This document shows, one piece after another, positions 744-18,131 of a stretch of 64,000 nt of DNA. The DNA is from Betaproteobacteria bacterium RIFCSPLOWO2_12_FULL_62_58. GTDB lineage: Bacteria; Pseudomonadota; Gammaproteobacteria; Burkholderiales; SG8-41. The stretch spans positions 2,762-66,761 of the forward strand of contig MERI01000231.1 of assembly GCA_001772005.1 (NCBI GenBank), given 5' to 3'. Under the pieces are notes generated by a model. That model was not told where the DNA came from, ran no database searches, and saw only the letters and a list, made by a program, of their open reading frames with translations. Each line of letters begins with the position of its first letter. Positions within the stretch are counted from its first letter, which is position 1. The translations under genes were made by a program, and so were the position numbers.

Positions 744-1109
744 TCAGGCCGCCGCGCGGGCCATCTCGAATTCGGCATGAATCCGATCGAATGGGACGTA
801 AACTCGGCCCGCTTCGTCACGTTCGATGAGTCCTTCTTCAACGAGAACCTTTACGTCCCGATGCACGGATTTCACGTCGCGTCCCACTGACCGTGCCAGG
901 CCCCGAAGGCTCACCGGGCCAAGTTCTTGCAATCGCTCGATCAGTGTCCAGCGCGCAGGGCTGAAGATGCGAAACAATGCTGCCGGCGATTCGAAGCTGC
1001 GTACCTCACCCTGGTAGCGGTGGGTTCGACCGGCTCGAAGCACCCCGCCGCGCAAGCGATTGCGAGCGGTCGCCTCGTCGCGTTCGATCAGAATGGTCAT
1101 CGTTCTCAT
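744..1109 (-). CDS. HTH DNA-binding protein, probable antitoxin partner (TumA-like) of the upstream DUF6516 gene
   Basis: 121-aa ORF with a winged-helix-like segment (LQELGPVSLRGLARSVGRDVKSVHRDVKVLVEEGLIERDE). Its ATG overlaps the stop of 1106..1390 by 4 nt (ATGA), giving a two-gene cassette. Confidence 0.6.
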   Translation of the reverse strand: MRTMTILIERDEATARNRLRGGVLRAGRTHRYQGEVRSFESPAALFRIFSPARWTLIERLQELGPVSLRGLARSVGRDVKSVHRDVKVLVEEGLIERDEAGRVYVPFDRIHAEFEMARAAA

Positions 1110-1390
1110 GGCTTCCTCAATACGTCCACATCTGTGAAGAAATCCTCAAGCAGCCGCTCAAGGCTGACAAACACGTAACGCTCTTCGCGCCTGCCGGCGT
1201 GGCGATGATCACCTTTCCCGCGCTCGTTGTCGTAGCCGACGAGCCGATGCCCCGGTAGGCCGTAGAACAGCCGATACTTGAACCGATGAGCGCTCCCGGT
1301 CACAGGCTTGTCCAATTCCCACACCCGCGCCTCAAGGATCGCTCCGTCGTCGTAGCTGCGCTTGTAGTGGTAGAGGAGGCGCACCGCCAT
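1106..1390 (-). CDS. DUF6516 / TumE-family toxin-like protein
   Basis: 94-aa ORF carrying the motif YDNERGKGDHRH plus FKYRLFY, which I recognise from DUF6516 (TumE-type toxin) proteins. Translationally coupled to the downstream HTH gene. Confidence 0.6.
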   Translation of the reverse strand: MAVRLLYHYKRSYDDGAILEARVWELDKPVTGSAHRFKYRLFYGLPGHRLVGYDNERGKGDHRHAGRREERYVFVSLERLLEDFFTDVDVLRKP

Positions 1391-1554
1391 GTTGGCAAGT
1401 ATGCCAACAGACTGTCACCGACGTCAATGCCCCCGCATCATAAGTAGCCGGGTGGAACACGATCATGGAATCGCCAAGTTGCCGGCGCCTTGCGGACGCC
1501 ATCGGCTTTATGCAGAAAAGGAAGCTGAACGATGTGCCCAGCTTCGTACCAGAG

Positions 1555-1600
1555 TGGCGCGCCCGGCAGGATTCGAACCCACGACCCCCTGGTTCGTAGC
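1555..1600 (-). other. 3' half of a tRNA-Arg(ACG) gene (anticodon loop through CCA); no functional 5' half, so a putative att scar
   Basis: The minus strand reads GCTACGAACCAGGGGGTCGTGGGTTCGAATCCTGCCGGGCGCGCCA. That covers the CUACGAA loop, the T-arm GTGGG/TTCGAAT/CCTGC, the acceptor 3' strand and CCA. The sequence 5' of it cannot form an anticodon stem or D-arm. Confidence 0.6.
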
Positions 1601-1683
1601 AACAGCGAGAAAACAGCCTTGATCCAATACTTGCGCAGCACGACTGAGCCGCGGCGACTTTCTCGGTAACCGCCGTACATCCA

Positions 1684-17731: not shown

Positions 17732-18131
17732 GATTATCTCTGTCGGTGATCGTCACATCGCGAGGCAAGCGGCCGCACGCTCGCGTACTGGCGCTCGTCA
17801 CGCCTTGCCTTGCGCTATAGGTGGCGTGCCCTTGCCGGATCAAAGCTTCTTACGAGTAAGTCTCGAGTACCCGGTGTTCTTCCGGGTCCTCATCCGTGAC
17901 GACTGCCGCGACCCAGCTTCGGTAACTACTTCACCAGCAAGGAACATTCCATGTACTCTAAAGCGTTGATTTGTTGATATCTTTAACCAGCCGACCGTTG
18001 CCCATTTTGCATAACAGCGCTGGACAGCGCTTTACAGCACCGTTGCAAAAGCGTTGCAGAGGATTTTCTTCGCGGAGCACTCATTTCCGGCGTTGGAAAA
18101 TCTCCTTGCGGGATCTTCTGCAGCTTTGACG

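Follow-up and report, generated by a model that had tools for sequence, protein, structure and literature searches.

An orphan tRNA-Arg(ACG) half as a probable relic of a large serine recombinase element in a betaproteobacterial genome

Introduction

Displaced fragments of tRNA genes (tDNAs) and tandem arrays of tyrosine-integrase genomic islands form the signature on which the Islander approach is based (Hudson, Lau and Williams 2015, PMC4383910). According to that paper, no serine-family integrase was known to use tDNAs as targets, and its tDNA-based island finding requires a tyrosine integrase (PMC4383910). A serine-recombinase counterpart is found at the ssrA gene of Dehalococcoides, where islands with the serine recombinase DsiB form tandem arrays (McMurdie et al. 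2011, PMC3146451). A few tycheposons carry large serine recombinases.

We analyzed a window of 64,000 nucleotides, corresponding to positions 2762-66761 of contig C231 in a metagenome bin of 277 contigs (G000, 98.6% complete, 6.25% contamination), which contains an orphan 3' half of a tRNA-Arg(ACG) gene. As in the islands identified by Islander, the 3' tDNA fragment of the window is identical to the regenerated gene and its break lies in the anticodon loop, corresponding to the "anticodon centered" class. Several fragments are likewise present for one tRNA, and the gene is a hot spot in relatives. Unlike in Islander islands, only recombinase stubs remain, no integrase was found here between the tDNA and the fragment, and the 3' flank of the fragment is a serine-family recombinase gene belonging to another element. 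The Dehalococcoides ssrA islands (PMC3146451) share with this locus a large serine recombinase (LSR) at a tRNA-like gene, next to its 3' end, as well as direct repeats of short length and tandem accretion in which old members become fixed in the chromosome. They differ in that the target is a tmRNA rather than a tRNA and the repeats are 20 bp long, and in the accessible part of the report no reading frame of a recombinase is described as crossing the target gene.

The tRNA fragment and its junction

The fragment lies at 1555-1600 on the minus strand, reading GCTACGAACCAGGGGGTCGTGGGTTCGAATCCTGCCGGGCGCGCCA from 1600 to 1555. ARAGORN identified one intact tRNA-Arg(ACG) in the whole assembly, at G000:C202:3370-3446, and the fragment matches positions 32-77 of this tRNA (C202:3401-3446) in 46 of 46 bases. 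The matching piece spans the anticodon loop, the 3' anticodon stem, the variable loop, the T arm, the 3' acceptor strand and CCA, and we consider that an exact match of this kind could not have arisen by chance. A first-pass annotation made from the window alone had described an orphan 3' half of tRNA-Arg(ACG) displaced by site-specific integration and had anticipated an intact gene with the same 3' half elsewhere in the genome; both points are borne out. A full-length functional tRNA, which would have spoken against that description, was looked for at the fragment and was called by neither ARAGORN nor Rfam.

ARAGORN returned zero tRNAs in the window and Rfam zero matches at the gathering score. 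Under permissive settings the RF00005 model scored 14.4 bits at the fragment (E=4, cut-off 29 bits) in an alignment whose stems were broken and which required an insertion of 20 nt, and 1555-1600 does not form the cloverleaf above the covariance-model threshold that is expected of a functional tRNA gene. Upstream of the fragment, an arm of 83 nt (1601-1683, minus strand), present as a single copy in the genome, extends to the stop codon of a MmgE/PrpD gene. No tRNA 5' half is present in this arm, although it would be expected there, and a search of the whole assembly also showed no orphan 5' half of tRNA-Arg. The 211-nt region around the half-tRNA does not fold better than its shuffles (z=0.89). 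It is therefore extremely unlikely that the fragment is a working noncanonical tRNA, a tRNA half or a tRNA-like regulatory RNA, even with an intact T arm and acceptor 3' strand and 100% identity to a functional gene, and no tRNA promoter context was found.

The 165-nt junction is identical in at least nine independent metagenome assemblies and is therefore not an assembly artifact. Base composition gave no island signal at the fragment, with no compositional step.

A recombinase gene ending inside the tRNA

On the opposite strand, the fragment coincides with the end of an LSR gene. The 3' stub of this gene (1456-1599, plus strand) consists of 47 codons followed by a TAG stop at 1597-1599. In a tblastn search, the stub (C231:4217-4357, window 1456-1596) showed 76.6% identity to residues 490-536 of the LSR from the congeneric genome G007, the last 47 residues of the query, and it was the sole match to this LSR family in the genome. 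Its translation reads ...RRLADAIGFMQKRKLNDVPSFVPEWRARQDSNPRPPGS and ends with ...VPSFVPEWRARQDSNPRPPGS, a tail that is identical in G113, L108 and others. In its last 14 codons (WRARQDSNPRPPGS) the stub runs antisense to the tRNA piece, and an in-frame stop occurs 51 codons ahead of the stub end. The window retains only these last 47 codons and lacks the Resolvase, Recombinase and zinc-ribbon domains, all three of which are present in the full LSR proteins of G007 and L108. Since the opposite strand aligns with the C terminus of the LSR and tblastn found no full-length relative of the G007 protein in the assembly, the half-tRNA doubles as the tail of a destroyed recombinase gene. The stub, together with the LSR family to which it points, is what this locus adds to the described systems.

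A complete version of the arrangement is found in G007. Its contig C55 provides the one match among relatives that covers both the fragment and 66 nt past the CCA end, with 88% nucleotide identity. The tRNA-Arg(ACG) is whole in this contig and is overlapped on the opposite strand by an open reading frame of 541 amino acids ending ...VPSFVNDWRARQDSNPRPPGS*, which we assign to the large serine recombinases based on its Resolvase, Recombinase and Zn_ribbon_recom domains. Its tail can be read directly against the tRNA: the Trp codon TGG is complementary to CCA, RARQDSNPRPPGS is encoded opposite the acceptor and T arms, and the TAG stop falls opposite CTA of the anticodon loop. The reading frame in the window similarly ends within the tRNA on the opposite strand, with its Trp codon as the antisense of CCA. 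Because the LSR gene ends inside the tRNA in this way, an intact integrated element consists of a whole tRNA gene with the LSR gene reading into it from the 3' side.

A terminator-like hairpin of 10 pairs followed by CTTTTCTGCA (1521-1545, minus strand) is the element-borne terminator that lies 3' of the tRNA in intact LSR loci; the same hairpin is found after the whole tRNA genes in G007, G146, G113 and L108. In the window, a distance of 140 nt separates it from the stop codon of the MmgE/PrpD gene upstream, and the promoter of a putative toxin gene, described below, comes after it.

Comparison with G007:C55 identified three collinear blocks in the window, at 1600-1489, 723-546 and 151-16. 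The second (546-723) shows 72% identity to the G007 LSR element over 183 nt and the third (16-151) shows 66% over 145 nt. On the basis of this collinearity, the recognizable remnant of the element is on the low-coordinate side of the fragment, next to the toxin-antitoxin cassette. Blocks 546-723 and 16-151 are apparently noncoding and match neither Pfam nor Rfam families.

The first two blocks are about 4 kb apart in G007, with the LSR body and an open reading frame of 288 amino acids between them, whereas in the window they are separated by 0.77 kb holding the genes for a TumE protein and an HVO_A0114 winged-helix protein. The putative TumE-family toxin gene is at 1106-1390 (minus strand; PF20126, 1.1e-13) and overlaps by 4 nt with a putative TumA-like antitoxin gene encoding an HVO_A0114/MarR-like winged-helix partner at 744-1109 (minus strand; PF25212, 1e-27). 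A sigma-70-like promoter is predicted ahead of TumE at 1398-1427. The toxin-antitoxin cassette reported in the first-pass annotation is thus recovered as a TumE-domain protein with an adjacent helix-turn-helix partner. As in known TumE/TumA pairs, the two genes encode a Pfam TumE protein and a winged-helix partner, have a 4-nt overlap and lie beside a mobile-element scar. The cassette occupies the place of the LSR body. It thus replaced part of the element and is not a demonstrated stabilizer of it; in the exchange, about 4 kb comprising the LSR body and neighboring genes gave way to 0.77 kb.

The best explanation for these observations, which we regard as probable, is that an LSR-driven integrative element had inserted at the 3' end of tRNA-Arg(ACG) and that the fragment is what remains, in inert form, of its recombinase end. 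The reading as an LSR relic is well supported. No cognate recombinase is left, so nothing at the locus can recombine. The present role is plausibly passive, with the T arm and the hairpin at 1521-1545 predicted to end MmgE/PrpD transcription ahead of the TumE promoter, and the fragment is otherwise an ordinary genomic scar for which no function other than this passive termination is likely.

A family of large serine recombinases at tRNA 3' ends

Relatives of the LSR were found in 21 of 159 genomes of the same taxonomic family. Among the 27 loci in these genomes, 16-17 have the 3' end of the LSR gene inside a whole tRNA gene (Arg-ACG, Arg-CCG, Arg-CCT, Asn, Glu or His), and about 10 adjoin a partial tRNA piece of 16-48 nt. 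In G146:C39, an LSR stub of about 100 codons adjoins a whole tRNA-Arg(ACG), which indicates that LSR decay of this sort recurs. In species-representative genomes, the LSR family includes at least 569 loci from many phyla, distributed over Burkholderiales, Geobacter, Nitrospirota, Azonexus, Bradyrhizobium, Mesorhizobium, Sphingopyxis, Rhizobiales and others. In the best 80 of these loci, the LSR end is inside a whole tRNA in about 49 (Asn about 21, Arg about 17, Glu about 6). Across the family the targets are the tRNAs for Asn, Arg, Glu, Ala, Ser and Lys, and the proteins share a conserved tail, ...VP(S/R)F(V/A)P.W, in which the W is the antisense of CCA. Phage and plasmid collections contained LSR relatives at no more than 43% identity, annotated as "recombinase family protein", and no description of this family was found in the searchable literature.

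Two islands with an LSR only could be delimited, one of 4.4 kb at tRNA-Asn (G017:C50) and one of 6.7 kb (G074:C12). Their far ends repeat just 12-18 nt of the tRNA end. The repeat is preceded by GTGCCCAGATTTG, which is the inverted copy of CAAATCTGGGCAC found 3' of the tRNA at the recombinase end. As judged from the sequences, this is the usual attachment-site layout of serine integrases, with a short core. The 46-nt block in the window is not an LSR product, since LSR-only islands leave repeats of only 12-18 nt. The far-end mark, a repeat of 12-18 nt with its inverted half-site, was not found in the 28 kb on the low-coordinate side, nor in the rest of the assembly.

The partial tRNA pieces adjoining about 10 of the 27 loci in related genomes would be compatible with the fragment and its 5' arm being the element's own attP-like attachment site, carried on a larger element or inserted in another way, with no second island involved. 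We consider this improbable, as true LSR attachment sites (also in L048) keep about 12-18 nt of tRNA after an inverted half-site like GTGCCCAGATTTG, whereas here 46 nt are identical to the tRNA and no half-site precedes the last 17 nt.

Empty sites that would give the exact junction were not found among congeners, the genus being too divergent (73-82% identity) and its synteny broken; the synteny upstream of tRNA-Arg also differs between the genome studied here and its congeners. When metagenomes were scanned for an LSR-type flank like that of the window attached to a whole tRNA, one soil contig was returned, which carries a full LSR and does not represent the ancestral state of this locus.

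Taken over the whole family, we lean toward the view that these LSRs use tRNA 3' ends as landing sites, with the attachment site within their own coding sequence, so that integration would swap the C-terminal tail of the enzyme. Together with tyrosine-type islands, they would build mixed layered arrays that become fixed when the host deletes the recombinases. A widespread family of serine integrases targeting tRNAs is of interest for integration tools, and its elements would be missed by tDNA-based island finders that demand a tyrosine integrase (PMC4383910).

Tyrosine-type islands at the same tRNA gene

The break point of the fragment points to a second type of element. Orphans at tRNA-Arg(ACG) in eight relatives (G019, G040, G049, G009, G002, G004, G008 and G006) and on contig C78 of the genome studied here all begin with (G)CTACGAACC, as does 1555-1600. 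The islands of G019 (9.4 kb) and G040 (45 kb) both carry tyrosine integrases beside the tRNA. The extent of the fragment equals the crossover sublocation of a tyrosine-integrase subfamily, in agreement with the tyrosine-integrase-type extent proposed in the first-pass annotation. A random deletion or rearrangement next to the LSR could also have taken the 5' half of a whole tRNA-Arg with no second element, in a locus as heavily rearranged as this one, with its LSR truncated, a neighboring attachment core deleted and synteny broken. The coincidence required is considerable, as the break falls within 1 nt of the tyrosine-type island position in at least eight other genomes and only roughly 3 of 77 random end points are estimated to do so; we give this explanation little weight.

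Further traces of tyrosine-type islands are present on other contigs. The intact tRNA on C202 is followed (C202:3447-3721) by a P' arm of the G019/G004 kind with its own terminator and then by the 3' stub of a tyrosine-integrase gene, whose last 60 codons show 68% identity to the G019 integrase; metabolic genes come directly after. A tRNA-Arg orphan at C78:7080-7128 is 98% identical to the tRNA and carries a G-to-A substitution in the T loop. The P arm in front of this orphan is common to G004, G008 and G002, and the flank behind it is that of the unoccupied tRNA-Arg in G001. Two additional tRNA-Arg 3' pieces were found at C143:356-399 (82% identical) and C123:3924-3949 (26 nt). The pieces on C78, C143 and C123 suggest at least four past insertions at tRNA-Arg, provided that the contigs represent one genome. 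Across the whole genome, a PF00589 search yielded 14 matches, none of them on C231, C202 or C78, and tblastn with two tyrosine integrases and the LSR identified nothing beyond the two stubs. The intact tRNA (C202), the fragment (C231 and C62) and the C78 orphan are on separate contigs, and only the 60-codon stub follows the tRNA on C202.

The window itself contains, as a stretch of 116 nt (17952-18067, minus strand), the P arm of a tyrosine-integrase island on its own, with 93% identity to C78:7133-7247 and the same orientation as 1555-1600. P arms of this type precede the orphans in G004, G008 and G002. The neighboring 77 nt (17864-17940, minus strand) are a copy, at 87% identity, of the flank found after the C78 orphan and after the unoccupied G001 tRNA-Arg. 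Arm and flank are now separated by only 11 nt, about 185 nt with the tRNA core and terminator having been deleted between them. The region 17864-18067 is a second and more decayed attachment-site relic, which shares the orientation of the first and lies 16.3 kb away from it. The relics explain the toxin-antitoxin cassette beside the half-tRNA and a gene-free gap of 573 nt near 18 kb.

The combination of both element types is preserved intact at another tRNA. In G125:C68:107662-120326, a whole tRNA-Glu(TTC) is followed by an 11-kb island, a 48-nt orphan (100% identity) and a full LSR of 558 amino acids, and the island carries a tyrosine integrase at its far end (PF00589, 4.5e-30). ARAGORN miscalls the orphan region of this locus as tRNA-Tyr.

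By analogy with G125:C68, which shows the same layout, the likeliest history of the window would comprise three steps. An LSR element would have integrated at tRNA-Arg; a tyrosine-type island would then have entered the regenerated tRNA gene and displaced its 3' 46 nt, which remained attached to the LSR gene; finally, both recombinases would have decayed. The 46-nt piece would accordingly represent the inner seam of a tandem array, with the intact tRNA and the tyrosine-integrase stub now on another contig. The second step, in which a tyrosine-integrase element of the anticodon-loop type in the regenerated tRNA removed the 5' half, is marginally favored. We place it only slightly above even chances because the multiple pieces do not fit a two-element array, the contigs are unordered and the upstream synteny differs. 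The arm at 1601-1683 is also evidence against a tyrosine-type island, as it lacks recognizable tyrosine-integrase motifs; neither ATCAAYGNNTTAG nor GCAACG was seen when it was read by eye against tyrosine-type arms.

The C78 orphan and the C202 tRNA were also considered as a simple pair flanking 1555-1600 and rejected, as their arm types are unfit for a two-element array. Because the arm before the C78 orphan is of the tyrosine type, such an array is not compatible with the data, and one has to assume either a deletion or no fewer than three insertions. Walks through other assemblies gave no link among C231, C202 and C78 and ended in insertion sequences, with the walk from the C202 end meeting a DDE transposase. 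C202 and C78 might be from another strain, given the 6.25% contamination of the bin.

Gene neighborhood of the fragment

The first-pass annotation had placed an accessory island of about 60 kb at higher coordinates, with the fragment at its boundary. Between 1.6 and 64 kb, 39 open reading frames were tested, and all of them have metabolic or regulatory products. Within the 62 kb of 1684-64000 there are at least eight genes for MmgE/PrpD and at least 12 for TctC, an unusual density of paralogs that goes on in contig C62. Further products include aconitase-like, FAD, acyl-CoA dehydrogenase, CoA-transferase, amidohydrolase, BKACE, cupin, ThDP and IclR proteins. Contig C231 joins C62 at its left end, as established through other assemblies, and the metabolic genes continue there, such that TctC, MmgE/PrpD and acyl-CoA genes occur for at least 65 kb on one side of the fragment and at least 28 kb on the other. 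Integrase, conjugation, phage or other mobility genes were not found on the 69.8-kb contig C231 (39 open reading frames tested).

These results bear on the possibility that a single tyrosine-integrase island of about 60 kb occupies the higher coordinates and has the fragment as its distal attR, with native chromosome on the low-coordinate side. The break point of the fragment equals that of tyrosine-type orphans, the intact tRNA bears a tyrosine-integrase stub, tRNA-Arg(ACG) is a proven hot spot in relatives, and the fragment is identical to the 3' part of the intact tDNA (46/46), as an attR would be. The flank after the fragment, however, is the end of an LSR gene collinear with an LSR element and not the native flank, and native flank of the G001 type follows the C78 orphan instead. 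With zero integrase, conjugation or phage genes among the 39 open reading frames and equal gene content on both sides, a single island of this kind is unlikely. The proposal of an island at higher coordinates is accordingly withdrawn in favor of an element remnant on the low-coordinate side, where the 3' flank is an LSR stub rather than chromosome. The island boundary does not hold either, the same kinds of metabolic genes being found on both sides, and of the integrase envisaged beside the intact tRNA-Arg only the 60-codon stub at C202 remains, with no integrase island on the contig of the fragment. The relic of an LSR-driven element is thus preferred, and the fragment marks a seam of the past, whereas core and accessory genes do not meet there today. 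A half-tRNA is not by default a tyrosine-integrase attR; its flank is decisive, and in this case the flank points to a serine recombinase.

Past the right end of C231, as seen in a contig from another sample (L093 1-6070, ENA ERZ4903185 k141_218551), the run of metabolic genes stops at an IS21-family element consisting of a transposase and IstB. In a zone that is not assembled in G000, this contig carries a second HVO_A0114 (TumA-like) gene and a HigA-like helix-turn-helix gene after the IS21 element.
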